Source: Flectonema sp. DT1601 (Eukaryota). Taken from it: a stretch of 64,000 nucleotides of DNA. The translations under genes and the position numbers were made by a program. Each line of letters opens with the position of its first letter. Positions within the stretch are counted from its first letter, which is position 1. The stretch spans positions 558,001 to 622,000 of the forward strand of contig OZ025789.1 of NCBI GenBank assembly GCA_964019425.1, given 5' to 3'. The notes under the pieces were generated by a model. The model saw nothing but the letters and a program-made list of their open reading frames with translations, ran no database searches and was not told the DNA's origin. Shown one piece after another: positions 2,447 through 52,646 of this stretch.

Positions 2447-2735
2447 TTGACGCACACCTGGTTTAACAAACAGACAAAAAAAAACAAAACAAAAAAAACG
2501 TCAAACATCTTCCCTAACCTTCCTGACGTTCCTTCGGGTCGCTAATAGCCTTTTTTATGATGAGTATTCGACCTAGTTGAGTGAAATATTCTTATGATAG
2601 TTGAATTTACTTTATTCTAAATTACAGATTCGTTTGTTTACATCAAAAGACCGAGTGGGGAGTACTTACACTCTCCCCTCATACTGGCGATAGCAGGCGA
2701 GGTAATTATATTTTCACAGGGAAGTATTTTGTTCA

Positions 2736-3434
2736 ATGAAAACAATAGGACTTCTGGGAGGCATGAGTTGGGAATCAACAGCCAGCTACTATAACGTTAT
2801 AAATGAAGAAATAAAGTCAAAATTAGGAGGTTTTCACTCAGCTAAGATTATAATGGTTAGTGTTAACTTCGCGGAGATTGAGGAGCTTCAAAGGGAAGGT
2901 CGTTGGGATCAAATTAGTAAAATTTTGGGAAAAGCGGTGAAAAATTTAGAAAATGGTGGAGCTGATTTCTTTTTAATTTGTTCGAATACTATTCATATCA
3001 TCGCAGAAGAACTTCAAATCCAAGTAACCATTCCACTCATTCACATCGTTGATGCTGTTGGTGACATGCTATCAAGGCATTGCATTACAACAGTTGGTCT
3101 TCTAGGAACCATATTCACAATCGATAATCCTTTTTACAAAAACATCCTAAAAACAAAATACAACATCAACGTTGAAATCCCTTCTGAATCTGATTGTAAA
3201 ATTATTAATAAAATTATTTATGAAGAGCTTTGTCTTGGAACTATAAACAACGAATCACTTTCCGAGTGTAAGAGAATAATTGAATTGCTCGCGAGTAAAG
3301 GAGCTGAAGGAGTCGTATTGGGATGTACCGAGTTAGGTCTTCTCATAAATTCTTATGAGATATCAATACCACTATTTGATACGTTACAAATCCACGCTAA
3401 GTATGCAGTTGGAAAGTCTCTCAGTACAGAGTGA
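2736..3434 (+). CDS. PLP-independent aspartate/glutamate racemase family protein, bacterial YgeA/RacX-like (232 aa)
   Basis: N-terminus MKTIGLLGGMSWESTASYY and motifs GADFFLICSNTIH, IPLIHI, VGLLGT, IIYEELCLG, GVVLGCTEL, PLFDT. Full length for the family, intronless. Confidence 0.92.
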   Translation: MKTIGLLGGMSWESTASYYNVINEEIKSKLGGFHSAKIIMVSVNFAEIEELQREGRWDQISKILGKAVKNLENGGADFFLICSNTIHIIAEELQIQVTIPLIHIVDAVGDMLSRHCITTVGLLGTIFTIDNPFYKNILKTKYNINVEIPSESDCKIINKIIYEELCLGTINNESLSECKRIIELLASKGAEGVVLGCTELGLLINSYEISIPLFDTLQIHAKYAVGKSLSTE

Positions 3435-6541: not shown

Positions 6542-6848
6542 TTTGTAGTAATTTAGTTGAAAGGGGCTTCTCTCCTTCAAAAGAAGAGGATAGCATTTTT
6601 TTTTTTTTTTTTTTTAGTTGTAGCCCTTTTCCAAGGCACTTTTTTGGTAAGAGAAAGTAAGTTTGAAAAAAATAAATATCTGCTTACGACTATTTTAGTT
6701 ATCTCTCTTTGAATCAACAGATCTATATTTTATAAATCTGCTCGATGAGAAGTGTCCCTACGAGATAAGAGCCAACTCAATATCCGAAACGGAAAAAAAA
6801 AAAAAAAAAAAAAAAATTATTTTTTCTTCTTCTCACTTCTTATTCGAC

Positions 6849-7137
6849 AGAGAATAGTCTCTATACGAAAAAAAAAAATCGGAAGTTAATTAGGCTGCTG
6901 AGATCTAAGCAAGTAATAGGCCAACTTCATACATATCAACTGCTCACGTAATTAGCTGAGGGGTTGAATGACGCCTACCTGATTCGGTAGAGAACAGTCT
7001 CTGCGAAAAATCGGAGGTTATTAGGCTGCTGAGATCTAAGCAAGTAATAGGCCAACTTCTTATTTATCAACTGCTCACGTAATTAGTTGAGCGGTTGAAC
7101 GACACCTACCTGACTCGGTAGAGAACAGTCTCTGCGC
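6849..7137. repeat. Imperfect tandem repeat, ~131-140 bp unit, about 2.1 copies
   Basis: agagaa(t/c)agtctct starts at 6849, 6989 and 7120. The internal block ttaggctgctgagatctaagcaagtaataggccaacttc is identical in both full units. Confidence 0.9.
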
Positions 7138-8805
7138 AAAAATTTACTACCAGATTTAATTTTCCCCCCGCCCTAGTTTTATGTTGTCAGAGTTTTTTTA
7201 CTCCCCTTCACTCTGAGTATCAATTTCCATCCACGAACCGACTCACGAAAAAAAAAAAAAAAAAAAAAAAAATACTTTTTGCTTGTGATTGAAGGTAATT
7301 AAAAAAAAAAAAAAAAAAAACGAAACGAAAAAAGAAAAAAACATAAAAATATTCTAGTTGACAGTTGTTGTTCTCAATTTTTGAAGGCGCCACTTGAATG
7401 TGTTTCGTACCTTACTCACTTCTGTGGTTGGGTGGCGTTGCTTGCGAAGGTACACCAGATGCGGACATTAAAAAAGTCTTCCCTTTTAAATAGGAATACG
7501 ACGTTAGCTGCATTCAGCCTTAGTTAGGTACATTTGTTGAAGAGGTGTGGTGGGCTGTTGTAAGGGCTTTCCCCCGAGTTTTTCGCCTCCCGATTTTTTT
7601 TTTTTTTTTTTTTTTGTGGAGAACTGATTCATTCACAAGAACCCTATCCTGTTTTCATTGCGATTCTTATTACTATTAATTTACGATTCTTCTCAATTAT
7701 TTATTTTTTTTTCTCTCTCCCCTTTCTTTTAATTTAGGGTACCAGTTATTCCTTAGTTATTTTTTTTTTACTTTTTTTTTTTTCTACCTGCTTACCAAAA
7801 AGATAGAGTTCTTGTGACTTTGTGGAAGCAACTTTTTTAAGACAAAAAGATCGTTACTGGCATTTATTGTGTGCAGCATCGATCATTTTGCTTATTTTTC
7901 TACCACATCCCTCCTACGTGTAATTCAACCCCCCTCAGATTTATCATTTGCTCAAATTCAGTGGTACATTTGGGGATTTTTTATTTTTATTTTAAAAAAT
8001 TACTTCTAAAGTGTGTGTGTGTGCTATACCACAATAGACACGGACTTAAGGAGGGTGATGGTTGAGTTTACTGAAATTAAAAAAAAAAAAGCATTCGACC
8101 CTTTTATCAGCCTCCTGGATTTGTCAAGAGATTGATCTGTTTTTAGTACTTACCCCCTCCTTAGATTGACCGTAAGGCGATCACTATTAGTTGTAACTTA
8201 TTCCGTTTTTTTTTTTTCTCTTTTTTTTTCATTTGCATTATCCCTGTTTAAAGTACTGAAACTCGGCTCACTCGCGATAAAAACTCCTCCTCTGTTTTTC
8301 CTAGTTTTTTTTTTTTTTAAAAATGCACTTGATATCAAAAAAAAAAAGGATTTGTTTTGGTTTTTCCCCAGTTGTTCAAGCAACCGCTGCTTGTTTGGAA
8401 GTCAACCTGTCCAGGTCTGGCCATTCAAAAAAAAAGAATTTCTTTTTTTTTCCGTTTCTCGCATAGTCAAGATTGGGTTGTTCTCCTTTTTTTTTTTCCT
8501 TCTTCTTTTTTTTCTTCCCCACGAAATAATAAGTCTGGCCACCCGAGGATATATATAGTACAAAAAAAAAAAAAAAAAAAAAAAAACCCTTTTTCTTACT
8601 TGTTGTGTCAAAAGTACAATAATACGTTTCTTGACTGTTTGCTCTACCTGTGTGTTTTGTTAAGACATAATTAAAAATCTCATTTTCTCTTATTCATATC
8701 CAAAACATAAAAATAAACTTGTTGGCATTATCCTATACATGTACTAATATTAATGAAGTTGTATTTTATACTATAGTCATCACACAGTACACAAAAAAAG
8801 ACCTT

Positions 8806-14330: not shown

Positions 14331-14744
14331 CATTACTGTAAGTAATTAATGAATCACTCACAAGAATGTATCTTATGATATGAGAAAATCAGATTCATTT
14401 GTTAGCAGTTATTCGTTTTCACGTTGCATCTATGGATCGAGTTTTAGAAGGCTTTGGATAGAAAGAGAGAAAACAGTTAGCTAGTTAAAAAGAAGTCACA
14501 GGTCAGCTGTGATCACAATCGATGTTTTTATCTCGTGGTTTGAAGCTAACCGAATCAATATAATATTGTTGAGATGTACTTCATTGTGACTTTATATTCA
14601 TCACAAAGGTTTTTAACGTATTCCCCACGAAGATGTAAAGGTCCTGCTGAATGTTTTTTGTCGTTTAATAATTGTTTGTTTTATTTTCTTTAATAATTCA
14701 TCTCGGCAGATAAAATAGTAAAACAACAACAACAACAACCGAAT

Positions 14745-15200
14745 ATGAAGACTTGTCTAATTCTCTCGATGTTGGTTTCCACTTTGGGAATGCAACTGAA
14801 AGTAGACGCGACGAATCCTTGCATTGCTACTGGAAACGGAACAAAATTCGACATCAGCAATCTGTTTGAGTATCCAATCAAAGCCACTAACAAGTACGAG
14901 TACACCTTCAATCCTTGTCGCCCTGTTCCATGTAATGGAGAAAGTAATGATGCGGCTTTTTGTCAGGCGGCAGACTTTCCGAGAGTGGGAGGAGAGGTTC
15001 ACGGTGCGATCTGGTTTTTAGACAGCTTCAGTCCATGTCAATTCAGAGTGTTGTTCCCAAATGGGTTGTACTGGAGAGCTTCATGGGTCACCTTCACTGA
15101 AGACCCAAAACAAGAAAATGGAAAGTTTGAAGCCCTCGGAGAATACCCTTCTGAGATCTATAACTTCAAGGTTACACACAAGAACGTAGGACCAGTCTGA
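14745..15200 (+). CDS. Secreted MRH-like (mannose-6-phosphate receptor homology) domain protein, copy 1 (151 aa)
   Basis: Signal peptide, then C...FDISNL...YEYTFNPC...C...AAFCQ...NG..WRAS.VTF...GEYP..IYNF. This matches the CIMR/ATG27-type MRH pattern by eye. Confidence 0.72.
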   Translation: MKTCLILSMLVSTLGMQLKVDATNPCIATGNGTKFDISNLFEYPIKATNKYEYTFNPCRPVPCNGESNDAAFCQAADFPRVGGEVHGAIWFLDSFSPCQFRVLFPNGLYWRASWVTFTEDPKQENGKFEALGEYPSEIYNFKVTHKNVGPV

Positions 15201-16063
15201 GCTGCTGACTGGGTTCTTGTGATGCGCAAGTAGGTTGTCTCTTTTTTGATGTTCCTCTTGTTTTGTGTAAATCGTATTATAACTGAAAACAATTTGTTTC
15301 CCAACGTTTCATTATTTTCACAACTCGAGTGATTTATGGAAACCTATTCCTTGTTCGCAATAATTAAAATTGTATCTTGTTTTCTGATAAAATAACTTTT
15401 TTTTAGTTTATTTGGTTTTCATTAAAAATATCACTTTCTGAGCAAATAGACTGAACCAGTAGAGTTATTTCTTTATTGATTCTTCCTTTTCGTGTTTTTT
15501 TTGTGTTTTACATTTATTACTATTCTCCCTTAGGGATGTAATCTGTAATTTGTTTTGTTCAATTTGCCCTACACTTTTTCTAACTAACTAGTTTCTGATA
15601 ACAATCAGTCAACTCTTCCTGTTTTTATAAATCAAGAAATCTTGTTTCATGCAATCTAGTTGCATGGCAGTCTGTTTCCACACCAATGGGGAAGTCAAAA
15701 AAAGGGATCTTTGATAACTCCCCGAATGAAATATAAAACTTTTTGTTAAAACAAAAGTTCCTCCTTGTGAAAAAGAAAATAAAGACCTGTGTTAATATAA
15801 CACTCGTTGAACTCTTTACGTACTTTGCACCTCTTACTCTCGGAGGGCCGTAATACAAAATACAAAAAATGATTTTCGTCTTTTAAGGAAAGTTAATTCT
15901 TATTACAGGTTCAGATTGCCAATACAAACGATGTGTGTGATTTTATTCTGAGTGTTGGTATCAAAGTAGATTACACAGGCAAAACATTAATATGTTCACT
16001 CTTTGTTTTCTTTAATAATTCATCTCGGCAGATAAAATAGTAAAACAACAACAACAACCGAAT

Positions 16064-16519
16064 ATGAAGACTTGTCTAATTCTCTCGATGTTGGTTTCCA
16101 CTTTGGGAATGCAACTGAAAGTAGACGCGACGAATCCTTGCATTGCTACTGGAAACGGAACAAAATTCGACATCAGCAATCTGTTTGAGTATCCAATCAA
16201 AGCCACTAACAAGTACGAGTACACCTTCAATCCTTGTCGCCCTGTTCCATGTAATGGAGAAAGTAATGATGCGGCTTTTTGTCAGGCGGCAGACTTTCCG
16301 AGAGTGGGAGGAGAGGTTCACGGTGCGATCTGGTTTTTAGACAGCTTCAGTCCATGTCAATTCAGAGTGTTGTTCCCAAATGGGTTGTACTGGAGAGCTT
16401 CATGGGTCACCTTCACTGAAGACCCAAAACAAGAAAATGGAAAGTTTGAAGCCCTCGGAGAATACCCTTCTGAGATCTATAACTTCAAGGTTACACACAA
16501 GAACGTAGGACCAGTCTGA
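16064..16519 (+). CDS. Secreted MRH-like protein, copy 2 (151 aa, same protein as copy 1)
   Basis: Identical translation to copy 1, 1319 bp downstream. Confidence 0.72.
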   Translation: MKTCLILSMLVSTLGMQLKVDATNPCIATGNGTKFDISNLFEYPIKATNKYEYTFNPCRPVPCNGESNDAAFCQAADFPRVGGEVHGAIWFLDSFSPCQFRVLFPNGLYWRASWVTFTEDPKQENGKFEALGEYPSEIYNFKVTHKNVGPV

Positions 16520-17382
16520 GCTGCTGACTGGGTTCTTGTGATGCGCAAGTAGGTTGTCTCTTTTTTGATGTTCCTCTTGTTTTGTGTAAATCGTATTATA
16601 ACTGAAAACAATTTGTTTCCCAACGTTTCATTATTTTCACAACTCGAGTGATTTATGGAAACCTATTCCTTGTTCGCAATAATTAAAATTGTATCTTGTT
16701 TTCTGATAAAATAACTTTTTTTTAGTTTATTTGGTTTTCATTAAAAATATCACTTTCTGAGCAAATAGACTGAACCAGTAGAGTTATTTCTTTATTGATT
16801 CTTCCTTTTCGTGTTTTTTTTGTGTTTTACATTTATTACTATTCTCCCTTAGGGATGTAATCTGTAATTTGTTTTGTTCAATTTGCCCTACACTTTTTCT
16901 AACTAACTAGTTTCTGATAACAATCAGTCAACTCTTCCTGTTTTTATAAATCAAGAAATCTTGTTTCATGCAATCTAGTTGCATGGCAGTCTGTTTCCAC
17001 ACCAATGGGGAAGTCAAAAAAAGGGATCTTTGATAACTCCCCGAATGAAATATAAAACTTTTTGTTAAAACAAAAGTTCCTCCTTGTGAAAAAGAAAATA
17101 AAGACCTGTGTTAATATAACACTCGTTGAACTCTTTACGTACTTTGCACCTCTTACTCTCGGAGGGCCGTAATACAAAATACAAAAAATGATTTTCGTCT
17201 TTTAAGGAAAGTTAATTCTTATTACAGGTTCAGATTGCCAATACAAACGATGTGTGTGATTTTATTCTGAGTGTTGGTATCAAAGTAGATTACACAGGCA
17301 AAACATTAATATGTTCACTCTTTGTTTTCTTTAATAATTCATCTCGGCAGATAAAATAGTAAAACAACAACAACAACCGAAT

Positions 17383-17838
17383 ATGAAGACTTGTCTAATT
17401 CTCTCGATGTTGGTTTCCACTTTGGGAATGCAACTGAAAGTAGACGCGACGAATCCTTGCATTGCTACTGGAAACGGAACAAAATTCGACATCAGCAATC
17501 TGTTTGAGTATCCAATCAAAGCCACTAACAAGTACGAGTACACCTTCAATCCTTGTCGCCCTGTTCCATGTAATGGAGAAAGTAATGATGCGGCTTTTTG
17601 TCAGGCGGCAGACTTTCCAAGAGTGGGAGGAGAGGTTCACAGTGCGATCTGGTTTTTAGAAAATATGAAGCCATGTAAATTCAGAGTGTTGTTCCTGAAT
17701 GGGTACAAGTGGAGAGCTTCATGGGTCACCTTCACTGAAGACCCAACCCAAGAAAATGGAAAGTTTGAAGCCCTCGGAGAATACCCTTCTGAGATCTATA
17801 ACTTCAAGGTTACACACAAGAACGTAGGACCAGTCTGA
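17383..17838 (+). CDS. Secreted MRH-like protein, copy 3 (151 aa, divergent central loops)
   Basis: HSAIWFLENMKPCKFRVLFLNGYKW variant. Confidence 0.72.
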   Translation: MKTCLILSMLVSTLGMQLKVDATNPCIATGNGTKFDISNLFEYPIKATNKYEYTFNPCRPVPCNGESNDAAFCQAADFPRVGGEVHSAIWFLENMKPCKFRVLFLNGYKWRASWVTFTEDPTQENGKFEALGEYPSEIYNFKVTHKNVGPV

Positions 17839-19104
17839 GCTGCTGACTGGGTTCTTGCGATGCGCAAGTAGGGCTCTCTCTCCTTTTGTTTTCTTATTTT
17901 TTTTGTAAGTAAACGCTTCCAAAGATTGAATACTTCTTTGGTGGAAAAATAAAAAGAAAAAATCACTTTCTAACTGCGCACCTTTAATAAATAATGTCAT
18001 GTACGTCAACTATGTGATGTTGCTTCCGGCGCCATGTGTGTCCTGTGAACTATGCGGCTAAAAATGATTTCCAAAACGTTTTTTTTCTGATAAATTTTTT
18101 TCGTAGCTCACATGAAGAATATTAACAGTGTTCTTCATTGAGTATAGGGTTATGATTATTATTATAACTTTTTTAATTTCCAACTACTATCTTGAATCAA
18201 GAACCTCTACGTTGTTGACCGTCTACAAGAGTGATGAAAACCTGTTTTTTGATTTGGATTTCACATTCTCTGGAGCAATGGACTAAACCATAAGAGATCT
18301 TTTTTTTTGAATGTGTTATTGGAATATTTTAATTAAACAAAATACTGGGATTCCTGTGTGGAGTATTTCTTGTTGTGATTCTTCCCTTTTGTGTTAAAAG
18401 TTTTTTTTTCATTTTCTGTTATTTATTTTTATTTTTTTCTTTCAAGTTTATAGATCTAATCTGTAACCTTTGATTTTCCCGGTGGGTGTGGGTAGTCACT
18501 TGCTTCTGGTTAATTCACGTCTCTTCTCTTGTGTATTGATCTCATGACTGGTACCTCATCTTTGGAAAGTTTTAACTTCGATAAATAATTTATGATGTGT
18601 ATTTGACTCATATTAAAGGTGCGTTTTTTTTTTGGAGGTTGTAAAAAATCTTCTGCACTTTTTCTAACTAACTTCAAAGTTTTTTGTGAAATGAAATTCC
18701 TCTCAAACTTCTGCTATCTATGAAGGTCTTCAATTGATGTGAAAAAAAAAGAATTATTCTTTTGGAAAAAGGGAAGTGAAAATTAAAAAAAGAAAATAGA
18801 GACCTGTGTTAATATAACACTCGTTGAACTATTAGTTCATAGGCGGCAGCTCTGCTTTGCACCTCTTACTCTCAGAGGGCCGTTTTACGAACGAAAAATG
18901 ATTATTGTCTTTTAAGGAAAGTTAATTCTTATTACAGGTTCAGATTGCCAATACAAACGATGTGTGTGATTTTATTATGAGTGTTGGTATCAAAGTAGAT
19001 TACACAGGCAAAACGTTAATATGTTCACTCTTTATTTTCTTTAATAATTCATCTCGGCAGATAAAATAGTAAAACAACAACAACAACAACAACAACAACC
19101 GAAT

Positions 19105-19566
19105 ATGAAGACTTGTCTAATTCTCTCGATGTTGGTTTCCACTTTGGGAATGCAACTAAAAGTAGACGCGACGAATCCTTGCATTGCTACTGGAAACAAC
19201 ACAAAATTCGACATCAGCAATCTGTTTGAGTATCCAATCAAAGCTACTAACAAGTACGAGTACACCTTCAATCCTTGTCGCCCTGTTCCATGTGCTGGAG
19301 AAAGTAATGACGCGGCTTTTTGTCAGGCGGCAGACTTTCCGAGAGTGGGAGGAGAGGTTCACGGTGCGATCTGGTTTTTAGACAGCTTCAGTCCATGTAA
19401 ATTCAGAGTGTTGTTCCCGAATGGGTTGTACTGGAGAGCTTCATGGGTCACCTTCGTTGAAGACCCAAAACAAGAAAATGGAAAGTTTGAAGCCCTCGGA
19501 GAATACCCTTATGAGATCTATAACTTCAAGGTTACCCACAAGGACATAAAACCAATCTGGGGCTGA
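19105..19566 (+). CDS. Secreted MRH-like protein, copy 4 (153 aa)
   Basis: GNNT, PCAGES and DIKPIWG C-terminal variant. Confidence 0.72.
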   Translation: MKTCLILSMLVSTLGMQLKVDATNPCIATGNNTKFDISNLFEYPIKATNKYEYTFNPCRPVPCAGESNDAAFCQAADFPRVGGEVHGAIWFLDSFSPCKFRVLFPNGLYWRASWVTFVEDPKQENGKFEALGEYPYEIYNFKVTHKDIKPIWG

Positions 19567-20783
19567 ATGGGTTCTTGTGATGAGCAAGTAGGGCTCTCTC
19601 TCGTTTTTTTTGTTTTCTTGTTTTTTTTTGTGAAATAAATGCTTCCAAAGATTGAATACTTCTTTGGTGGAAAAAAAAAAAAAAGAAAAAATCATTTTCT
19701 AACTGCGCACCTTTAATCAATAATGTCATGTACGTCAACTATGTGATGTTGCTTCCGGCGCCATGTGTGTCCTGTGAACTTTGCGGCTAAAAATGATTTC
19801 CAAAACGTTTTTTTTCTGATAAATCTTTTTCGTAGCTCACATGAAGAATATTAACAGTGTTCTTCATTGAGTATAGGGTTATGATTATTATTGTAACTTT
19901 TTTTAATTTCCAACTACTATCTTGAATCAAGAACCTCTACGTTGTTGACCGTCTACAAGAGTGATGAAAACCTGTTTTTTGATTTGGATTTCACATTCTC
20001 TGGAGCAATGGACTAAACCATAAGAGATCTTTTTTTTTTGAATGTGTTATTGGAATATTTTAAATAAACAAAATACTGGGATTCCTGTGTGGAGTATTTC
20101 TTGTTGTGATTCTTCCCTTTTGTGTTTAAAATTTTTTTTTTCATTTTCTGTTATTTATTTCTATTTTTTTCTTTCAAGTTTATAGATCTTCGATGGGTGT
20201 GGGTAGTCACTTGCTTCTGGTTAATTCACGTCTCTTCTCTTGTGTATTGATCCCATGACTGGCACCTCATCTTTGGAAAGTTTTAATTTCGATAAATAAT
20301 TTATGATGTGTATGTGACTCATAATGTTATAAAATATCTTCTGCACTTTTTCTAACTAACTTCAAAGTTTTTTGTGAAATGAAATTCCTCTCAAACTTCT
20401 GCTATCTATGATGGTCTTCAATTGATGTAAAAAAAAGAATTTTTCTTTTGGAAAAAGAGAAAAGAAAATTAAAAAAAGAAAATAGAGACCTGTGTTAATA
20501 TAACACTCGTTGAACTATTAGTTCATAAGCGGCAGCTCTGCTTTGCATCTTACTCTCAGAGGGCCGTATTACAAAATACAAAAAATGATTTTTGTTTTTA
20601 TTTTAGGGAAAGTTAATTCTTATTACAGGTTCAGATTGCCAATACAAACGATGTGTGTGATTTTATTCTGAGTGTTGGTATCAAAGTAGATTACACAGGC
20701 AAAACATTAATATTTTAACTCTTTATTTTCTTTAATAATTCATCTCGGCAGATAAAATAGTAAAACAACAACAACAACCGAAT

Positions 20784-21239
20784 ATGAAGACTTGTCTAAT
20801 TCTCTCGATGTTGGTTTCCACTTTGGGAATGCAACTGAAAGTAGACGCGACGAATCCTTGCATTGCTACTGGAAACGGAACAAAATTCGACATCAGCAAT
20901 CTGTTTGAGTATCCAATCAAAGCCACTAACAAGTACGAGTACACCTTCAATCCTTGTCGCCCTGTTCCATGTAATGGAGAAAGTAATGATGCGGCTTTTT
21001 GTCAGGCGGCAGACTTTCCAAGAGTGGGAGGAGAGGTTCACAGTGCGATCTGGTTTTTAGACAGCTTCAGTCCATGTCAATTCAGAGTGCTGTTCCCAAA
21101 TGGGTTGTACTGGAGAGCTTCATGGGTCACCTTCACTGAAGACCCAAACCAAGAAAATGGAAAGTTTGAAGCCCTCGGAGAATACCCTTCTGAGATCTAT
21201 AACTTCAAGGTTACACACAAGAACGTAGGACCAGTCTGA
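20784..21239 (+). CDS. Secreted MRH-like protein, copy 5 (151 aa)
   Basis: HSAIWFLDSFSPCQ and DPNQ variant. Confidence 0.72.
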   Translation: MKTCLILSMLVSTLGMQLKVDATNPCIATGNGTKFDISNLFEYPIKATNKYEYTFNPCRPVPCNGESNDAAFCQAADFPRVGGEVHSAIWFLDSFSPCQFRVLFPNGLYWRASWVTFTEDPNQENGKFEALGEYPSEIYNFKVTHKNVGPV

Positions 21240-22115
21240 GCTGCTGACTGGGTTCTTGTGATGCGCAAGTAGGTTGTCTCTTTTTTGATGTTCCTCTTGT
21301 TTTGTGTAAATCGTATTATAACTGAAAACAATTTGTTTCCCAACGTTTCATTATTTTCACAACTCGAGTGATTTATGGAAACCTATTCCTTGTTCGCAAT
21401 AATTAAAATTGTATCTTGTTTTCTGATAAAATAACTTTTTTTTACGGATTTCGTAGTTTATTTGGTTTTCATTAAAAATAGACTGAATCAGTAGAGTTAT
21501 TTCTTTATTGATTCTTCCTTTTCGTGTTTTTTTTGTGTTTTACATTTATTACTATTCTCCCTTAGGGATGTAATCTGTAATTTGTTTTGTTCAATTTGCC
21601 CTACACTTTTTCTAACTAACTAGTTTCTGATAACAATCAGTCAACTCTTCCTGTTTTTATAAATCAAGAAATCTTGTTTCATGCAATCTAGTTGCATGGC
21701 AGTCTGTTTCCATACCAATGGGGAAGTCAAAAAAAGGGATCTTTGATAACTCCCCGAATGAAATATAAAACTTTTTGTTAAAACAAAAGTTCCTCCTTGT
21801 GAAAAAGAAAATAAAGACCTGCGTTAATATAACACTCGTTGAACTCTTTACGTACGGCGGCTCTGCTTTGCACCTCTTACTCTCAGAGGGCCGTATTACA
21901 AAATACAAAAAATGATTTTCGTCTTTTAAGGAAAGTTAATTCTTATTACAGGTTCAGATTGCCAATACAAACGATGTGTGTGATTTTATTCTGAGTGTTG
22001 GTATCAAAGTAGATTACACAGGCAAAACATTAATATTTTAACTCTTTATTTTCTTTAATAATTCATCTCGGCAGATAAAATAGTAAAACAACAACAACAA
22101 CAACAACAACCGAAT

Positions 22116-22577
22116 ATGAAGACTTGTCTAATTCTCTCGATGTTGGTTTCCACTTTGGGAATGCAACTGAAAGTAGACGCGACGAATCCTTGCATTGCTA
22201 CTGGAAACAACACAAAATTCGACATCAGCAATCTGTTTGAGTATCCAATCAAAGCCACTAACAAGTACGAGTACACCTTCAATCCTTGTCGCCCTGTTCC
22301 ATGTAATGGAGAAAGTAATGATGCGGCTTTTTGTCAGGCGGCAGACTTTCCGAGAGTGGGAGGAGAGGTTCACGGTGCGATCTGGTTTTTAGACAGCTTC
22401 AGTCCATGTAAATTCAGAGTGTTGTTCCCAAATGGGTTGTACTGGAGAGCTTCATGGGTCACCTTCGTTGAAGACCCAAAACAAGAAAATGGAAAGTTTG
22501 AAGCCCTCGGAGAATACCCTTATGAGATCTATAACTTCAAGGTTACCCACAAGGACATAAAACCAATCTGGGGCTAA
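22116..22577 (+). CDS. Secreted MRH-like protein, copy 6 (153 aa)
   Basis: GNNT and DIKPIWG as in copy 4, but PCNGES as in copy 1. Confidence 0.72.
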   Translation: MKTCLILSMLVSTLGMQLKVDATNPCIATGNNTKFDISNLFEYPIKATNKYEYTFNPCRPVPCNGESNDAAFCQAADFPRVGGEVHGAIWFLDSFSPCKFRVLFPNGLYWRASWVTFVEDPKQENGKFEALGEYPYEIYNFKVTHKDIKPIWG

Positions 22578-23678
22578 ATGGGTTCTTGTGATGCGCAAGT
22601 AGGGCTCTCTCTCGTTTTTTGTTTTCTTGTTTTTTTTTGTGAAATAAATGCTTCCAAAGATTGAATACTTCTTTGGTGGAAAAAAAAAAAAAAGAAAAAA
22701 TCATTTTCTAACTGCGCACCTTTAATCAATAATGTCATGTACGTCAACTATGTGATGTTGCTTCCGGCGCCATGTGTGTCCTGTGAACTTTGCGGCTAAA
22801 AATGATTTCCAAAACGTTTCTTTTCTGATAAATCTTTTTCGTAACTCACATGAAGAATATTAACAGTGTTCTTCATTGAGTATAGGGTTATGATTATTAT
22901 TGTAACTTTTTTTAATTTCCAACTACTATCTTGAATCAAGAACCTCTACGTTGTTGACCGTCTACAAGAGTGATGAAAACCTGTTTTTTGATTTGGATTT
23001 CACATTCTCTGGAGCAATGGACTAAACCATAAGAGATCTTTTTTTTTTGAATGTGTTATTGGAATATTTTAAATAAACAAAATACTGGGATTCCTGTGTG
23101 GAGTATTTCTTGTTGTGATTCTTCCCTTTTGTGTTTAAAAGTTTTTTTTAATTTTCTGTTATTTATTTCTATTTTTCTTTAAAGGATTAACGATGTAATC
23201 TGTAATCTGTTGATTTTCCCTTTTGTTCTTTTCGTTGTTGAATTTGGCTTTCTGAGGCTCTGCACTTTTTTTCTAACTAACTTTAGAGTTTTGCGAAAAG
23301 AAATTCCTCTCACACTTCTGGCATCCATGAGGATCTTTATTTAATGTGAAAAAAGTATTCCTCGTTGGGAAAAAAAGAAAATAGAGACCTGTGTTAATAA
23401 GACACTCGTTGAACTCTTTACATACGGCGGCTCTGCTTTGCACCTCTACTCTCAGAGGGCCGTATTACAAAATACAAAAAATGATTTTTGTTTTTATTTT
23501 AGGGAAAGTTAATTCTTATTACAGGTTCAGATTGCCAATACAAACGATGTGTGTGATTTTATTCTGAGTGTTGGTATCAAAGTAGATTACACAGGCAAAA
23601 CATTAATATGTTCACTCTTTATTTTCTTTAATAATTCATCTCGGCAATAAAATAGTAAAACAACAACAACAACCGAAT

Positions 23679-32683: not shown

Positions 32684-34524
32684 CTTAATTTATAACTAGA
32701 AGGAAGGAAAGGTATTCGAAAAGCAAAAAAAAAAAAGAAACCCATTTTTCTAAACTAGCCATTTTTAAATTAGGAGAATCATTGCAGCAATTTTAGGTTT
32801 CCTTCCCCCTTTTTTTTTTTTTTTTTTTAAAAAAGGTTTTTTAGATTTGTGACGAGCAAGGGGAAAAAAAAAAAAAAAAAAAAATTCTAATGATGTGTGT
32901 CCATACTGCTCCCTTTTCTCCAATTCCCCTATTTTCCTTATATTATATTATGTTTTCTTCCACAGTTGTTGCGGTTTTGGTCGACTCTTCCCCCGCTCGT
33001 TCTTGTGTCCTAATCTTAAATAATATCCCTTCACTTGGGTATGGCATCTGACAAAAGAAATGCTTGTCCCACAGATACAGATAATTATTGTTTTCTTTTT
33101 TATTTTTTAAGTTTCTTTTCCCTCAACGCAATCAATAATGTCACGGGCAGCGTTGACCGAAGCCGATGATTTGACTATCTGTTTGCGTGCAAAAAAAAAG
33201 ATATTGATTTGGTGCTTTTCTTTTCCCTTTTCTATTGTTCCTTGTTTTTAAATTGTTTCTCCAATGTAGTAATTGCACTGTGTGTATCTTGTTCAAAAAA
33301 AATAGCTGGTCAAAAGTGTGGAGCAAAAAATATTTTTGCTCCATATATTCCATGAGAGTCATGCTGTTAATATTGTTTTAGCTAATGGAAATCAATTTAA
33401 AAATCAAAAAAAAAAAAAAAAACCTCAAACAATCGTTTACAAGTAAAATGCTTTTTTTCCTCAGCTTATTCTTTTCTTTCTCCCAACTTATTATTATCAT
33501 TCTTTTTCTTTCTCTTTTCTTTCTCTTGTTTACAGCAAGACTTCCACGACTCATGACAAAGTGTGCGTGAGGAATACAATAGAGTGTCGCTACAATAGCT
33601 TTAATGCTAAGGCTCACATGACTGGTGCCCCATACTCTGAAATCTATTCTCGATTTGTGCGGTAAGAGTAGTTGTTTCCCCTTTTTTTGCACATGGCTGA
33701 TATTTTTGCTCGAGTTAATAAAAAAAAAAAAAAAAAAAAGGAATGCTAATTTGCACACGTCAAACCCTTGGATCTATGTCTGAGTCGGCGTTTCTTTTTT
33801 TTCGTGAACAGTAGCACCACGAATTTTCTGACCACTAATTCTGTAGTTTATTTAGAGGCAAAACAAAAAAAAAAAAAGAAATGAATTGAAATAGAAGAAA
33901 GAATAAAAAACACAAAAAAATAATTATTTGGATTCTCTTGTTGTCTTTCTTAGTTTTCTCGGAGATTTCTCTACCTTATCAATTCCTGTCCAATAATAAT
34001 AATAAAAAAAAAATAAAAGTTGTCGAAAACCCAGATTTTTGGATTTTTGGTATTCATGATGAATACCTAACAGAAATCGCGCGCTCGGTTAATAAAAAAA
34101 GAAAAGAAAAACGAATCTTTTCCCCCCTTTTTTTTCTCCCCTTAAAAACACTTCTTATCACACTTCCTGAACGAACTTGGAGGATTCTTCTGTTTCCTAG
34201 TTCGTTTAAGCCACCAGGCACTCTGTCTTCTAGAAGGCAGATCAGCAAGTACCAAAACAGTGAATTCAGTTCCTGGGTTTCTCCTTACCTCTAAAACCAT
34301 TCATTATGCGATAAAGAAGGGTCGAGGTAGTATAGCGGGTGGGGGGAATATGACTTATTATGCCTTGTTTCAGAGGGAGCCATAATACTTTTTTTTTTTC
34401 ATAACTACCTGTGCACTGTACGGGAGCAATGCTTCTGATAGTGCTTATTTGTTTTCGTAATGTTGCACTGTGTGGTAAATGAGGTAAGTAGTAATAACAT
34501 GGAAAAATTGTTTCTTCTTTTTTT

Positions 34525-34555
<31 letters not shown>

Positions 34556-36627
34556 GGATTCATGGTTGTAGTGATTATAACACACGTGGGGTGTATGGGC
34601 TCTTTTCTTTTTTTTCTTTCAAAAAAGTGCCCTTTTTGCATTAAGAGAGCCTATATATATAAATATATTTTCTTTTGTACCGAACATACCCTCTGTTGTT
34701 TATAATGTATATCCCATACGTAACGATAACAGGATGGGGGGAATAAAAGAGTAGGGGCAATGCGCGATTTTTTTTTTTTGATGAGCCCATGGTCAAAGGA
34801 CTGTTACTGTGTTTCAATCTTTAGCTGTTTATTTCGCCGCAACCATGATTTATTATTGTTATTGTTATTGTTTTTTTTTTTTTTTTTTTTTTTGGTTTTT
34901 TTTAAATCTGAAAAAACATGTTTGTCTCTTTCCAACAGAACGTTTGAATGCAGACTCGGCACTCTCTCAGAATAGCTCGCCCGCCATCCGTAGTTTTTGG
35001 TTTTTCTGGACTAAATATCAGCAGACAGTGAGGGGATTCCTTTTGTTATTGCGAGAGGCGTTTCTTTTTTTACTTTTTTTTGTTTGAGTAAGTTTATCGG
35101 TGATTCGCACACGGCAATCCCTTTCCCCGTTTATCTTTTTGCCTATGTGAGCAGTACCCCTTTAGTTCGACTGCATCGTTAATTCTAGTATTCAAAATTA
35201 GTTAACATTTTGATACAGTACAATATATTTATATCTTTATAAATATGCTCAAAAAACCCCCGTATTTTTTTTCCAAATTTCTAGCAACGATTTTTGGATA
35301 GTTAATACGAGCATTCTTTTTATGGTATTGAAAAAAAAAAAATGAGTATATTTTTTTTGCCTTTAGAATTTTAGCTACCTACTTCACACGGAAACTAACC
35401 GAAAACACCTCTATTACGTTATTTCTAAAGTATTTTTAACTTTTAGCTTATTACTGTTTTTCTACATTGCCAACAGTTTCATTCCCAGTCCCTACTGTCT
35501 CAAATGCTGTCTGAAGCCACCTGTTTTCATTTCCCCCGTTCCTTTCTTTTTATTTTTTAAATTTATTTATTTACTTATTTTTTGTGTTCGTTTTGTGTTC
35601 TTTTTTTTATTTTATCTTTTCAAAAATTCTTTTTTTTAGGAAAATCTTTTTCCTGCTTTGGACGGGAACTCTCTTTTATTAACGGAAAAGAGATGGAACG
35701 GGTTTTCAAAAATAATGATTAATTATATGCTAGGAGCATCTTACCACATCTAAGGATGGCAACAGGCGTGCAAATTGCCCAATAGCTACGAATTTAGCTG
35801 AGGCAGCGAAAGAAGAATAGGTAACTTCAAGTGCTTTTGCATTATGAAGATTACAAATAGATGGTTTTTTTTAGTTTATGTTAAACATAAATTTAAAAAA
35901 AAAAGGGAAGGAAAACGAGGTGTCTGGTAAGTGTTTTGTGAGTCTTTAAGAATTAAATATATCAAGGGAGGGTTGATAATGGAGATTAATGGGGGGTGAG
36001 GCCCCTCATTCCCTCTATCGTGTGTTTTTTATTTTTATTTTTATTTTATATTTTATGTTCTCCTCTTTTTTCTTCGTTTCCCGCTATTTTTATCGCGAGC
36101 AATAAAAAATAAAATAAAAAAAACTTTGCATTCTTTGTTAAGTATTACTGTCAACTGAATTCCTGCTCCCAATCAAATCAAAGGAGTGGAACCCCACAAG
36201 ACTAGTATTACGGAATACTTGCGAAGTATAGTTGTTGTAGTACCGCAGCACACATTTGCACACGAACGATATTATCTTTATAACACTGGGTTTCCCGTTC
36301 CCTCTTCCCCTTCCCCATCGCTTTCTGTTTGAGTGCCCATTTCCCTCCAGCTTCTTATTCTCATCCGTTATGCTTGAAAAAACACGTTGGGAATGAAAGT
36401 TGCAAAAGTAAATTATACTCTCTTATTCATCTGCAGGTATTAACTTATTGTGTTTGACATACACGTTAGATACTATAGAGCGATATGACACGGATTGAAG
36501 ATAACGTCCCAGAGCAACACCACGGGAATACAAAGTACGAGAAAAAAAAACCTACCATTCTTTGTGTTATTAATTTAAACATTTTTTATTTTTTTTTAAA
36601 TTTTTTTAAAAAGGTATTAAACAAAAT

Positions 36628-44877: not shown

Positions 44878-45311
44878 CTTATATCGATCGTTCTTCCTAT
44901 ATCTGCATGCGAACCAAGCAGCTGGGTACCTGAAACCTGTTTGTTTAGGAAAAAGGAATAGCCGACTGTGAACATTTTGTATAAATCTTTCCCCCATCAA
45001 TTATCTCTGTTTGTTACCAGAGAAGCTATGAACATAATCGGAGCCATCTCATCTGAGCTTCTGTTTGATTTCATTTCTTACAAACTGGTGGTATATTGTT
45101 TGTTACCCTTCCCCATTGTTGTCGAATCCCCTTGCTGGAGAATTTAATCTTTTCTGCCGAAGTTATTAAAAAAAACACAAACACAAGTTTTTTAAACTAA
45201 AATCGTTAATTTGTTTAATGTCTTTACGATTTGATTTGATTAATGACCAGCTTTATAGAATAATACAATCATAAAACCTATTTGCGATTAAGCTGAGTAA
45301 CCATTAGACAA

Positions 45312-45461
45312 CCGTAGTGTCCCCCTTGCTTTCTTCGCTGAAGAAGGCTGGGTAAGGGGAATGGTCCGAAGAAAGATTGTTTTTCATCTTAGCCCGAAAC
45401 CAACTTGTTTGTTGTCCTACGAAAATTTGCCTTTTTTTTGATTGAACTGATAATTATTAAT
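45312..45461 (+). mobile_element. Short dispersed SINE/retrozyme-like element, copy 2, with degenerate 16-bp target-site duplication
   Basis: Near-identical to copy 1 over the first ~110 nt. Flanks are agtaaccattagacaa (45296-45311) and agtaactattggacaa (45462-45477), 14/16 identical. Confidence 0.75.
45322..45402 (+). ncRNA. Candidate permuted hammerhead ribozyme, copy 2 (first stem II pair is an A-C mismatch)
   Basis: CTGAAGA 45338-45344, GTC 45364-45366, GAAA 45396-45399. Same stems as copy 1 except G to A at 45345. Confidence 0.6.
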
Positions 45462-45889
45462 AGTAACTATTGGACAATTCACACCGGCCACCTGGTAGTC
45501 AACTACAGGGGGTGCGCTATCGCTTGGTACCCTACGCGCTTAGATATTTATGTTTTCCGTGTTTTCCCGTTTTTTTTTTTTTTGTTTGGGAAAAGTCTGC
45601 CTGGTGCACGACTTCCCATTTTAGTTAGTATTTGTTACCCCCTTTTTTTGAAATTCTTTGACAAACTGAACCTTCTTACTTTTCTATTCGTTTGTATGTT
45701 TCGTGTTTTGGTTCTTTTCAAGTTGCGGCACAGTCCGCGATCCTCGTTGTTTCCCAGTTGTTATAGTTACACCTAAATCAACTACTGATGTATTGTCCAA
45801 CAAACAGTACGTGGGAATACTTTATAACATGGTCTCACTGTTTAATAATATTTTAATTTTTTCTTTCAGAAAAAGTGCTGAAGATATTC

Positions 45890-47710: not shown

Positions 47711-49486
47711 ATGTCGCTATCATCAATGGCCAATGAGGAGGTCGGTCAAAAATGGACTGATTTTGGTATTGACCGAAAACTATTGCAGGGAATAAAGAAG
47801 ATGAAATTTGCAGAGCCGACACTGATTCAATCTTCAGTGATTCCACTCGCTTTGAACGGTAAAGATATATTAGCCAGAGCTTCTACGGGAAGTGGAAAAA
47901 CCGCAGCATACAGCATACCCACTTGTCATAAACTATTATCAACTTTGACTGGTAAAATGGGAAAAGGAAGTGTCGTCAGTGCTCTTATTATGGTTCCTAG
48001 CAGAGAACTTTGTCACCAAGTGGCATCTCATTTTGTTAACATTTTAAGAAGTTGTGAAGGAAGGCTTCAGGTTATGAATCTTGCAGCGATAGAACCAAAC
48101 GAATGGTCAGGAGGACGATGTGAGATTGCTGTTGGAACACCAACAGTAACATTGTCACACGTGAAGTCTGGTAATATTAAGTTATCTGAATTACAAGTGT
48201 CGGTGATTGACGAGGCAGATTGCTTATTGTCTCATCCAACTGTCAGACGACTTAGAAGTTTATACCCAACATCAACACAGTCATTCTTAATGTCTGCAAC
48301 GTTATCACCTGGTGTGTTGGAGCTTAAGCGTTTACTTCTAAATAAACCTGTTGTTGTGAAATTAGAAGAAGAAGATGAGGATGACTCCAACGATGATCAA
48401 CCTGTTCCATCAGTCGCAGACATGAAAGGGAAATATAATCCAAAGATCAGTCAGTACTATGTCCCTTGTTACAATGAGTCTGAGAAATTTTGTTTTTTAT
48501 ATTCCCTAGTCCGTCTTCAACATGTTAAGGGTAAGATTCTTATCTTCGTAGACCATATTGATAAGGCTTACAGATTGAAATTATTTTTAGATAAATTTGG
48601 TCTTCACGGAGCTGTCTTAAACAAAGACGTTCCAATGAACAGCAGAAATCATATTGTAGCGCAATACAACAGCGGTGAATACAATATCTTAATAGCTACT
48701 GAAGAGTCTGTCAAGTATACTACAAGTGAGTACTCAGTTAGCAGAGGTGTTGACTTTAGAGAAGTCAGCGCAGTAATTAATTTCGATCTCCCGCTGGATT
48801 TAACAGAAGACTCCGCCAAGGCTTACATACACAGGATTGGTAGAACTGGTAGGGCAGGTAAAGAAGGTACTGCAATCACATTTATGTCAAGAAAGTCATT
48901 GAGAGAAACAGATTCTCCGACTTGGTTATCATACATGAATGCTTACTTAGAATCAGCGGGACAGCAAATCCTCCCTCACGAATTCGCCACCAAAACTGAG
49001 GAAGCACTGAGGCTTCAGTACAGAACTGATGACGCTCTTCAGAGTATTAAAAAGAAAACAATCAAAGAAGAAAAGGTTAGAGAGCTGGTATCTGAAGCCA
49101 TGGCAAGCGAAGCCTTAAAAGAGCATTTTTCTGAAAACCCAAGAGACTTGGCTGCCTTACAACACATCGCTCCACAGAAGCCTGCAGAGCAACTAGCAGC
49201 AGCATCTCGCTCATTCGTACCGTCATATATGGGTAGCTCAGTGTCTGGTCATTTGGTTGTCGAGTCCTGCAAACACACAGACAGCGAAGACTCAGACGAA
49301 GTAACTGCTACAACTAAAAAGAATAAAGGAAAAGCAATAAAGAGAAAGAGAAAGGATCCTCTTCGAACCCTTAAAATCTCCAAGGAAGCAGAGCCTACTT
49401 CAACCGGAGGAGAGGTAGTTCGTGAAAAAAGACGCATCGTAAAGCGTATTGTCAGGAAGAAGAAGCCAGCCGTAGCCGCATCGTAG
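47711..49486 (+). CDS. DDX56: DEAD-box RNA helicase DDX56/Dbp9 (591 aa)
   Basis: PTLIQ, ASTGSGKTAAY, PSRELC, DEAD, SAT, YIHRIGRTGR. Dbp9-like EYSVSRGVDF and HFSENPRDL...VPSY; basic C-terminus. Confidence 0.88.
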   Translation: MSLSSMANEEVGQKWTDFGIDRKLLQGIKKMKFAEPTLIQSSVIPLALNGKDILARASTGSGKTAAYSIPTCHKLLSTLTGKMGKGSVVSALIMVPSRELCHQVASHFVNILRSCEGRLQVMNLAAIEPNEWSGGRCEIAVGTPTVTLSHVKSGNIKLSELQVSVIDEADCLLSHPTVRRLRSLYPTSTQSFLMSATLSPGVLELKRLLLNKPVVVKLEEEDEDDSNDDQPVPSVADMKGKYNPKISQYYVPCYNESEKFCFLYSLVRLQHVKGKILIFVDHIDKAYRLKLFLDKFGLHGAVLNKDVPMNSRNHIVAQYNSGEYNILIATEESVKYTTSEYSVSRGVDFREVSAVINFDLPLDLTEDSAKAYIHRIGRTGRAGKEGTAITFMSRKSLRETDSPTWLSYMNAYLESAGQQILPHEFATKTEEALRLQYRTDDALQSIKKKTIKEEKVRELVSEAMASEALKEHFSENPRDLAALQHIAPQKPAEQLAAASRSFVPSYMGSSVSGHLVVESCKHTDSEDSDEVTATTKKNKGKAIKRKRKDPLRTLKISKEAEPTSTGGEVVREKRRIVKRIVRKKKPAVAAS

Positions 49487-49900: not shown

Positions 49901-52646
49901 ATGGCTGAAGCCCGTGCTGCGTGCCACCCGGTACCTGCCATAGGGCTGCATTCATTCAGAGTCGACCCTTCACTTCATAGTACGCAGGTTGCCGTGTCGA
50001 ACGATGGATTTGTGTTATACATTCCTCATCCTCGCTTTATATGGAAAAGTTTAAAGAGAGCTGTTCATTCAACCAGAACACAAGTTCAAACTTTATTGTG
50101 GCCATTACGACCTAGGTTTGTAGTTACATTCATAAGCGGGTTTGTCGCTTATGTCTGCTTGCGACCTAGAGATCATTGGTTGCGTAGTGGTCGAGTTGCT
50201 GAATTAATTTGGAAATTTGACAGTTGTCTCCCAGGCACGCATTACATACCAAATTCTTTACGTGTTGCGTATCTTTCTCTGAATACCGCGATCACAGTGA
50301 TATTGGTAACAGTGTTTAGTCAAAAGAGCTTTCTCAGATGGTTGCTATCATACCACGGATGGCTTTTCGAAGGAAGAACAAAAAGTGGATTCACAAAGTT
50401 CTGGGGAGCTTGTCTGAAATATGGATACCTCAACAGAGGTCTACTAGCAGGAAAACCACTGCTGTACAGTTTCCAACATGCTCTTCCAAGTCTTAAGCCA
50501 CCACGTGTAGAAGATACTGTATCCAGATGGCTTGAGACAGTGAGGCCCGTGATGAATGATGAAAAGTATCAGCAGGCAGAAGAAGAGGCAAACCAATTTT
50601 TAAAAAGTGGTGTCGCATCGCAATTGCAATCATTCTTGTGGAGGAAGAGTTTAATATCTAGAAACTATGTGACTGACTGGTGGATTCAATTTGTGTATCT
50701 TCGCGGAAGAAGTCCTCTATTCATTAACAGCAACTTCTACGGTATTGGTGATGGTGCTGATGAGGAGATTCCAACATCGAAACAGCTTCCGAGAGCAGCT
50801 GTTCTTGTGTATCACTGGTTACTAGCAAGGCAACTGATTGATAGAGAAAGACTTCCTCCATTGTGTATAAATGATTTGGTACCACTATGCATGGATCAGT
50901 ATCGACGTGCTTTTAATGCTTCGAGGATACCTGGAAGGGATGCTGATAGAATTCGTTCATGGGATATGGATGAATCAAGGCACTTGGTAGTAATTTATAA
51001 AGGGATTTATTATACGATGTCACCATACACTCAGGATACGGGTAGACTTCTTCAACCAACGGAGCTACTGAGATTACTTCAGGGAATTGTTGATGCTCAT
51101 GTTCCATCAGAAACTGTTACTCGAATTGGAGCCCTCACCACGATGGATCGAACAAAATGGGCCACCGTCAGAGAAGAGTTCCTCGTAGATGGAAGACTTC
51201 ACAACAGACAGACTCTGGATCAAATCGAACGCGCCATGTTCATCGTCAACCTCGATGATGATGAACCTGAAGACTTAACTACCACCAGTATGTATATTTT
51301 ATTGTGTGGTATTCTCTTACTGATGTGATTAAGCTAATACACTATAGAGTATATATCCTTACAGGTCAACTCTTGTATGGATCTCCATAATGGCTTTCAA
51401 AAGAATATCTGATTTTTAGTTTATCATTAAACTGACTTACAAACAAACAAACCAAAAATAGGTAACCTTCTCTTCTGTGGTGATGGTACCAACAGATGGT
51501 GCGATAAGAGTTTCTCTTTCGTAATCTTCAAGTATGTTATTGTTTCTTTTTTTTATTATAAATTTAATATATAAGCATCATAAAGTATACACAAAAAAAG
51601 GTCTTTTCTTTCAACACTAATTGTAATAAAACAGAAATGGTCGTGTTGGTATCCACACAGAGCACACCTGGGCTGACGCTCCAGTCATCGCTCACTTATT
51701 TGAGTGGATTCTCGCAATGGAACAGCGTAATAAGGATATTATGTACACAAAGGATGGTGATCTTTGTGAAAATATTGAACCAAAGGGAGCTGTGAAGTGG
51801 AGTGACATTGCATGGCAGACTAGAGAAGAAGGAGCTGTTGGGAGCAGTTCGTCACCAAGACCTCTTCGTATGACTCAAAGACTTCACTGGAGGATTCCAA
51901 AGGCGTTGGAACAAGAAATTGATTCAGCTGTTGAGGGAGCTCATTCCGCAATGAAAGATCTTGATTTAGAAGTATCAATGCATGATGCTTACGGAAAGGG
52001 ACTCGTTAAGAAAGCAGGCGTCTCCCCTGATGGATGGATTCAAATGGCACTCCAACTAGCATACTACCGAGACCAAGGTAAGTTTGAACTCACATATGAA
52101 AGTAGTATGACTAGATTATACCATGATGGACGTACTGAAACTATTAGATCTTGCAGTGAACAGAGTTGTGAGTTTGTTCTCGCACTGGAAAAGGGAGAGC
52201 TACCAAAAAGTGACGTCTTAGCATTGCTGAGAAAAGCTGGAGAGCATCACGTATTAAATAGCAGAAAGGCAATGGTTGGGCAAGGTGTCGACAGACATTT
52301 ATTTGCATTATACGTTGTATCAGCAGGGAAGGGTATTGACGCTCCATTCTTACAGTCAGTGATATCGAGTCCGTGGAAGTTGTCAACGTCACAGGTACCA
52401 CAGAGACAGCTTCCAAGAGGGACCTGGCCACAGAATGACGCAGGCGACCGCTACTACACTCCAAGTGGTGGTTTTGGTCCAGTTGCTGATGATGGATATG
52501 GTATTTCTTATTGTCTTTGTGGTGATTCGAGATTCTTCTTCCATGTTTCGTCAAAGAAAACCTTCCCAACTACTGACTCTGCTCGCATGCAGAAGCAGAT
52601 CCACAGAGCACTCAAGGACATGGCAAGTCTTGTTGAAGATAATTAG
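49901..52646 (+). CDS. CPT1: Carnitine O-palmitoyltransferase 1; join(49901..51287,51462..51531,51635..52646), ~822 aa
   Basis: MAEARAA start, N-terminal TM segments, PLLYSFQHALPSL, NYVTDWW..FVYLRGRSPL.INSNFY. Splicing yields NRWCDKSFSFVIFKNG...EHTWADAP (catalytic His). Also SPDGWIQMALQLA, TYESSMTRL, GRTETIRS, GVDRHL, LSTSQ, GGFGPVADDGYG. Confidence 0.93.
51288..51461 (+). other. CPT1 intron 1 (174 nt, GT-AG)
   Basis: gtatgt...ctgacttacaaacaaacaaaccaaaaatag; removal restores the conserved frame. Confidence 0.85.
51532..51634 (+). other. CPT1 intron 2 (103 nt, GT-AG)
   Basis: gtatgt...taataaaacag; removal gives FK-NGRVGIHTEHTWAD. Confidence 0.88.

Follow-up and report, generated by a model that had tools for sequence, protein, structure and literature searches.

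A non-coding insertion of ~150 bp, with a putative self-cleaving ribozyme inside it, raises a double question about this diplonemid locus: which kind of ribozyme is encoded, and how could an element whose own RNA would be cut have been copied into the genome? Both parts of the question are addressed here within the window, the whole stretch of 64 kb that was analysed. The reading favoured, to which we give a probability of roughly 0.6, is that of a duplication-flanked non-coding element that carries a predicted type-CSG hammerhead and was copied in trans from uncut RNA, probably by a Penelope-like retroelement.

The window has a GC content of 37%, long T runs and 27 long open reading frames (ORFs), all on the + strand. 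The closest named relatives of its DEAD-box helicase (47711–49486) are from Flectonema neradi (86%), Rhynchopus (54%) and Diplonema papillatum (49%). Seven near-identical genes, each for a predicted secreted protein of 150 aa with no Pfam match, form a tandem array from 14560 to 25900, with units of two types (~1.3 and 1.7 kb) and mosaic coding ends. Local tandem duplications are found at 6839–7141 (a 140-nt unit, 86% identity) and 32569–32683 (a short unit present three times), and ~8.5 kb within the otherwise dense one-strand cluster (28120–36600) is homopolymer-rich and holds no convincing gene. The gene at 2706–3434 belongs by Pfam to the aspartate/glutamate racemase family, a mostly bacterial family, and was possibly acquired by horizontal transfer.

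Two copies of the insertion and their host sites

The element body at 45312–45461 (+ strand, 5′ boundary ±1 nt) is framed by target-site duplications of 16 nt, at 45296–45311 on the left and 45462–45477 on the right, which are identical at 14 of 16 positions. BLAST finds a single other copy in the 64-kb window, with 88% identity over 25321–25447 (E 7e-42). This other copy, referred to as copy 1 (the former being copy 2), is a non-coding element of 179 bp on the + strand (25319–25497) between duplications of 18 nt, at 25301–25318 and 25498–25515, which agree at all 18 positions; together with the three preceding nucleotides (25298–25300), the left duplication reads CTRAY-N6-CAG. The terminal 16 nt at the 3′ end of copy 2 (45446–45461), with a CTRAY-like 5-mer at their start, match 25482–25497 of copy 1 at 14 of 16 positions, and the two copies start at a near-identical 5′ base. 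The preliminary description had presented the insertion as a second copy in an unrelated context with its own imperfect duplication, and every detail of that account is confirmed in the sequence.

Copy 1 lies after the last unit of the seven-gene array, and the paralogous units show what its target looks like when empty: the target sequence occurs once per unit, with at most three mismatches, at 18667, 20355 and 23276 (the last spanning 23276–23293 on the + strand), and shorter matches are found at 15583, 16902 and 21615. Since these paralogous units carry a single target copy, they are direct evidence that copy 1 was inserted and that host DNA was duplicated in the process. For copy 2, the 64-kb window contains no empty site. 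The combination of duplications of variable length (18 and 16 bp) with empty paralogues, the latter for copy 1 only, is that of a target-primed retroposon. The element has internal T runs and no poly(A) tail; tandem copies are absent from the 64-kb window, and neither a tandem nor an inverted arrangement is seen near either copy in it. No tRNA gene is present at the element and no Rfam family reaches its gathering score there, so that the tRNA-, 5S- or 7SL-derived head of a Pol III SINE is missing.

Predicted hammerhead and its variation

A hammerhead descriptor that allows all six block orders was applied to both strands of the 64 kb. It matches the two copies only, with three-stem scores of 20 and 19, compared with a best score of 15 in 25 Markov-simulated windows, and the hammerhead matches are therefore not attributable to chance. 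Both copies contain the core letters CUGAAGA, GAAA and GUC, in agreement with the CUGANGA/GAAA/NUH pattern, and in both the blocks follow one another from 5′ to 3′ in the order C, S, G (core, cleavage site, GAAA), alongside stems I to III.

In copy 2, all parts of the predicted fold being on the + strand, the core CUGAAGA (block C) is found at 45338–45344, between the 5′ strands of stem I (9 bp, 45329–45337 with 45367–45375) and stem II (45345–45352 with 45388–45395), the latter with an A45345/C45395 mismatch at 10.1/11.1. Block S (45362–45366) comprises the 3′ strand of stem III and the GUC triplet, with a cut predicted after C45366 by analogy with the published CSG ribozymes (PMC10085705), and block G (45396–45402) comprises GAAA and the 5′ strand of stem III. 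The extra helix expected of type CSG is predicted in both copies (45322–45359 in copy 2) with 7 bp, and zero-nt links join it to stems I and II, as in the published CSG consensus (PMC10085705). A predicted outer helix brings together 45313–45317 and 45417–45421; it is fully paired in copy 2 (5/5) and has 4/5 pairs in copy 1, with the mismatch at C25325. In the copy 1 ribozyme, also on the + strand, the core is at 25348–25354, the predicted cut follows C25376, GAAA is at 25404–25407 and G10.1–C11.1 is intact. In total, 97% of 66 cells are paired, against 36–55% when the pairing is slid. For the element RNA, the predicted fold is thus a hammerhead of type CSG (non-circularly permuted), which supports the earlier proposal of a ribozyme-bearing insertion and makes it more specific. 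Against this fold, nested folding favours a competing hairpin in which the core is buried, by a method that cannot score pseudoknots. At gathering score Rfam finds 0 families in the window and misses both copies, which suggests that hammerheads in retroelements are overlooked by standard descriptors and Rfam.

Within the ribozyme, the copies differ by four substitutions and one 2-nt indel. The core, stem I (9/9 pairs) and stem III (4/4) are invariant, as had been described, and three of the substitutions fall in helices. Two of these keep pairing by a one-sided change, namely A25338>G45328 in the extra helix (A-U to G·U, as previously noted) and T25396>C45388 in distal stem II (G·U to G-C); the third, G25355>A45345, does disrupt the first pair of stem II, 10.1–11.1. 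Divergence of the linker, also claimed earlier, comes down to one substitution and the 2-nt indel, the change at 45388 belonging to distal stem II. Two-sided pair changes are absent (0/33). The bulk of the divergence is in the 3′ tail, with one indel of 6 nt and a longer one of ~22–27 nt, depending on the alignment; comparison of ribozyme and tail variation gives p=0.07. The contention that variation is consistent with structure points in the right direction without reaching significance (paired or core positions, 3 events in 67; linker, 2 events in 12 positions; p=0.16). Copy 2 had further been considered apparently older, a claim that is not sustained by the mismatches in the duplications (2/16 versus 0/18, Fisher p=0.21) or by the helices, each copy having one helix-breaking change of its own; a greater age of copy 2 is possible.

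The pair G10.1–C11.1 is highly conserved in hammerheads (PMC4209133), and the stem II duplex is computed at −10.0 kcal/mol in copy 1 (G-C) versus −9.3 kcal/mol in copy 2 (A·C mismatch). Because A45345 creates a mismatch at this conserved pair, copy 2 is predicted to cut more slowly than copy 1, which we regard as likely. Alternatively, A45345 could, by inspection, be bulged between positions 9 and 10.1 in the style of Penelope hammerheads, at the cost of one bulged C. For assays, the two copies constitute a natural variant pair.

Searches for further CSG hammerheads yielded one candidate, a metagenome locus (L121, 896–986), the only one of 41 metagenome matches; the other 40 were rejected, the next best score being 20. 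It has a joining helix of 10 bp, 5 bp in stem II, 7 bp in stem III and an outer helix of 9 bp, accompanied by a weak stem I (3 pairs, a mismatch and 2 pairs). In a helix-by-helix comparison with the two copies, distinct from a statistical alignment, all helices are kept and the paired stems differ in sequence; full scores for the three range from 26 to 30. Among 21 prokaryote-genome matches none qualified (best full score 18). Viral contigs gave 0 matches to the strict pattern, at least 120 loci with a loose pattern and 29 with two further patterns, and none with a convincing CSG fold among the matches listed. These search patterns fix the letters of stem II, so that other CSG families would be missed, and the metagenome scan did not recover the two CSG contigs already published. 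A palindrome is visible by eye upstream of the L121 hammerhead (~863–896), which is antisense to an A-rich, stop-riddled strand. The neighbouring frames have no Pfam match (0 of 6 frames) and no protein match (0 of 592 candidates), and Rfam gives only three weak matches. For a decayed Penelope ORF at this locus, an N-terminal GxK-like motif and the palindrome are no more than leads.

Target sites and their likeness to splice acceptors

Both duplications begin, as the preliminary description had stated, with A(C/G)TAAC, and the likeness goes on to the left of the duplication: CTA-ACTAAC in copy 1 and CTG-AGTAAC in copy 2 have 7 of 9 letters in common (CT.A.TAAC). The 9-mer of copy 1 is matched as well by 0.12–0.15% of window positions, and 0.8% of random non-coding pairs agree to this degree. 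The idea of a shared target motif is thereby extended beyond ANTAAC, at a chance level of ~0.001–0.01, which is a post hoc estimate with n=2. The accompanying idea, that the motif steers insertions into intergenic DNA, runs counter to the window counts. On the + strand of non-coding DNA, ANTAAC is seen 41 times versus 42.8 expected, and A(C/G)TAAC reaches 0.70/kb in coding sequence against 0.46/kb outside, so that the short motif would not direct insertions between genes; on these counts, a role of ANTAAC as a signal for intergenic DNA or for one strand was rejected.

Resemblance of the target to a branch point, another earlier suggestion, holds for copy 1, whose site has the form CTRAY-N6-YAG, and only in part for copy 2, whose site has 4 of 5 consensus letters. 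A local standard is provided by a carnitine acyltransferase gene with three probable GTATG...AG introns in 51288–51634 (~60, 87 and 103 nt, the boundary of the first being uncertain). Removal of these introns restores one reading frame, and their ends consist of CTRAY, 6–22 nt and YAG. The copy 1 target, CTAAC-N6-CAG, has the same spacing as the first of them, and to judge from sequence it appears to possess the branch-point-to-AG layout of these probable intron ends. Within 26 kb of non-coding DNA, the + strand contains only two sites of the same type (CTRAY-N6-YAG), and all seven array units retain the 18-nt block around the copy 1 target, between flanks that diverge. As a class, CTRAY-N-YAG shows no enrichment on the + strand (3 seen versus 5.0 expected for N5–8). 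The AG spacing among array units varies from +12 to +16, and the next start codon after the copy 1 target is 400–500 nt away. In diplonemids, YTRAY is found in only 2–16% of introns (PMC12621601).

Several local similarities accompany these sites. The last 16 nt of copy 1 match the left flank of copy 2 (45293–45311) at 13 of 14 positions with one gap, a score reached by 4 of 4216 background windows; when the alignment of tail and flank is lengthened, it is not significant. The 9 nt directly upstream of the left duplication of copy 2 (45284–45292) are identical to 51327–51335, which lead into the branch point of the first acyltransferase intron. In the short array units, 15595–15607, 16914–16926 and 21627–21639 match the element tail at 11 of 13 positions, 12 nt past the homologous target (as high a score is reached in 34 of 6298 background windows), and may represent an old insertion that has been heavily truncated, or else a second splice acceptor (CTGAT-N6-CAG).

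A more specific reading would have the CSG-hammerhead retroposon home on the splice acceptors, each a branch point plus AG, of a genome that uses trans-splicing. The would-be branch adenosine is where both duplications begin, with an ambiguity of 1–2 nt, and both cover an AG; in the tail of the element itself, a branch-point 5-mer precedes an AG that is dead or rebuilt. We judge this homing rather unlikely. If it did occur, the acceptor would be duplicated, the host signal would stay intact downstream and the element would be processed into a small RNA of its own, and targeting of this kind would amount to a safe-harbour strategy fitting polycistronic genomes.

Routes of mobilization and comparison with known systems

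Both copies are in sense orientation relative to the genes of the cluster, and read-through would provide their transcription. The predicted fold would place the cut behind the GUC triplet, ~55 nt into the element, and since the sequence upstream of this cut is retained in both insertions, the template would have been either uncut or re-joined. Two staggered nicks 16–18 nt apart would generate the duplications. Because the target resembles the 3′ end of the element itself, either an endonuclease preference or priming assisted by RNA–DNA pairing may be envisaged; for the anole Penelope element, priming takes place at a site without homology to the cut DNA, which counts against pairing (PMC11167929). 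In that system, mainly unprocessed RNA is inserted regardless of the hammerhead, which needs protein (PMC11167929). Furthermore, Penelope pLTRs carry hammerheads (PMC4209133) and suffice for mobilization in trans in a rotifer Penelope-like element (PLE), with duplications of 8–10 bp (PMC3846280), short non-autonomous PLE insertions exist in a protist (PMC9977147), and some Naiads have core halves 35–50 nt apart (PMC8557442), the gap here being 49–51 nt. Insertion of unprocessed RNA, trans-mobilized pLTR hammerheads and the Naiad core spacing favour a Penelope-like enzyme, with the element as its non-autonomous derivative, and for this attribution the odds are about even. Against it stand the duplications of 16–18 bp, longer than those of the rotifer PLE (PMC3846280), and the near-fixed 5′ start of both copies, which is unlike random 5′ truncation. 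By Pfam, the 21 window ORFs searched (one array copy standing for seven) include no reverse transcriptase (RT) or endonuclease family, and no autonomous partner with RT and GIY-YIG that has the pLTR in common with the element. In Penelope-like elements the pLTRs may be partly in tandem or inverted, with an optional tail of 30–40 bp; the only trace of this here is the 14-nt tail match at the left junction of copy 2, and the name 'Penelope' is absent from the portions of the D. papillatum genome supplements covered here (PMC10161547).

An enzyme of LINE type (RTE, CRE/SLACS, R2-like or ingi) might instead mobilize the same ribozyme as a SINE-like passenger, the target motif reflecting its endonuclease preference. 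Ordinary target-primed insertion suits duplications of 16–18 bp and fixed ends, and LINE-1, SLACS, R2 and jockey-like ORFs are reported in D. papillatum (PMC10161547). This route is nevertheless improbable in view of the missing poly(A) tail and tRNA head, of the kinetoplastid ingi/L1Tc ribozyme, an HDV-like one that cuts immediately before +1 and goes with L1Tc duplications of 11–12 nt (PMC3383444), and of the internal cut, which would leave a LINE template without a clean 5′ end.

Lower still do we place a retrozyme-like cycle, in which a tandem master would be cut to monomers and circularized, and the reverse-transcribed circle would insert a permuted monomer; the left 'duplication' of copy 2 would then be partly the terminal redundancy of the element. 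Such a cycle accounts for sequence kept on both sides of the predicted cut and for the tail-to-flank match at copy 2, and type SGC, the circular permutation of CSG, has been found in RNA-only contigs (PMC10085705). It conflicts with the lack of tandem copies in the window, with the nearly identical ends of the two copies, with the host origin of the copy 1 duplication and with the loss of significance in longer tail-to-flank alignments.

That the insertion is a dead relic or a retrocopy of an H/ACA snoRNA, the hammerhead having no biological role, is very improbable. In its favour are a weak Rfam match to the trypanosomatid snoRNA TB9Cs4H1 (45306–45371, 16.3 bits, E 1.7) and the lowest-energy nested fold, one long hairpin. 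The match was rejected against a gathering score of 40 bits, no family passes at gathering score in the window, and the core and four helices lie far outside the simulated null and recur in L121 with a different sequence.

The favoured reading, a hammerhead element copied in trans from uncut RNA, can be placed among known systems from three sides. NARTc, RIME and SIDER of the ingi/L1Tc clade are likewise short ribozyme retroposons, and they occupy the spacers of a sister lineage's polycistronic clusters (PMC3383444). Their ribozyme is HDV-like and cuts before +1, with duplications of 11–12 nt, whereas the present element combines an internal hammerhead cut with duplications of 16–18 nt (PMC3383444) and so shows neither trait of that clade.

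With Penelope pLTRs and non-LTR retrozymes, the element shares its organization as short, low-GC, non-coding hammerhead units dispersed as monomers, as well as intergenic location and duplications of >4 bp (PMC4209133, PMC7229834, PMC3846280, PMC8557442, PMC11167929, bioRxiv 10.64898/2026.07.22.740005). The hammerheads of those systems are of type I and usually lie in tandem; here, single units in CSG order are found and no tandem repeats in the window. The host, moreover, is a euglenozoan, and no partner ORF is present among the 21 window ORFs.

Among the literature matches listed, mainly from outside subscription journals, there was neither a hammerhead retroposon in diplonemids nor a type-CSG hammerhead beyond those of Eckert et al. 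2023, who described two unique sequences in soil metagenome DNA, CSG-1 and CSG-2, both of which cleave, and rated the evidence for type CSG as weaker than that for type SGC (PMC10085705). Cleavage of the present ribozyme is predicted; its stem I has 9 bp instead of the 6 bp of CSG-1 and CSG-2, its U-rich linker is longer and an outer helix is added (PMC10085705). For CSG-1 and CSG-2, the parts of the published account considered here give no known organism and no mobile-element context (PMC10085705), whereas the copies described here are flanked by duplications in a eukaryotic nuclear genome. Type-CSG hammerheads had had no known host or role, and the duplication-flanked pair in a diplonemid, a lineage of the cultured type, provides them with a setting, namely the mobile DNA of a eukaryote.
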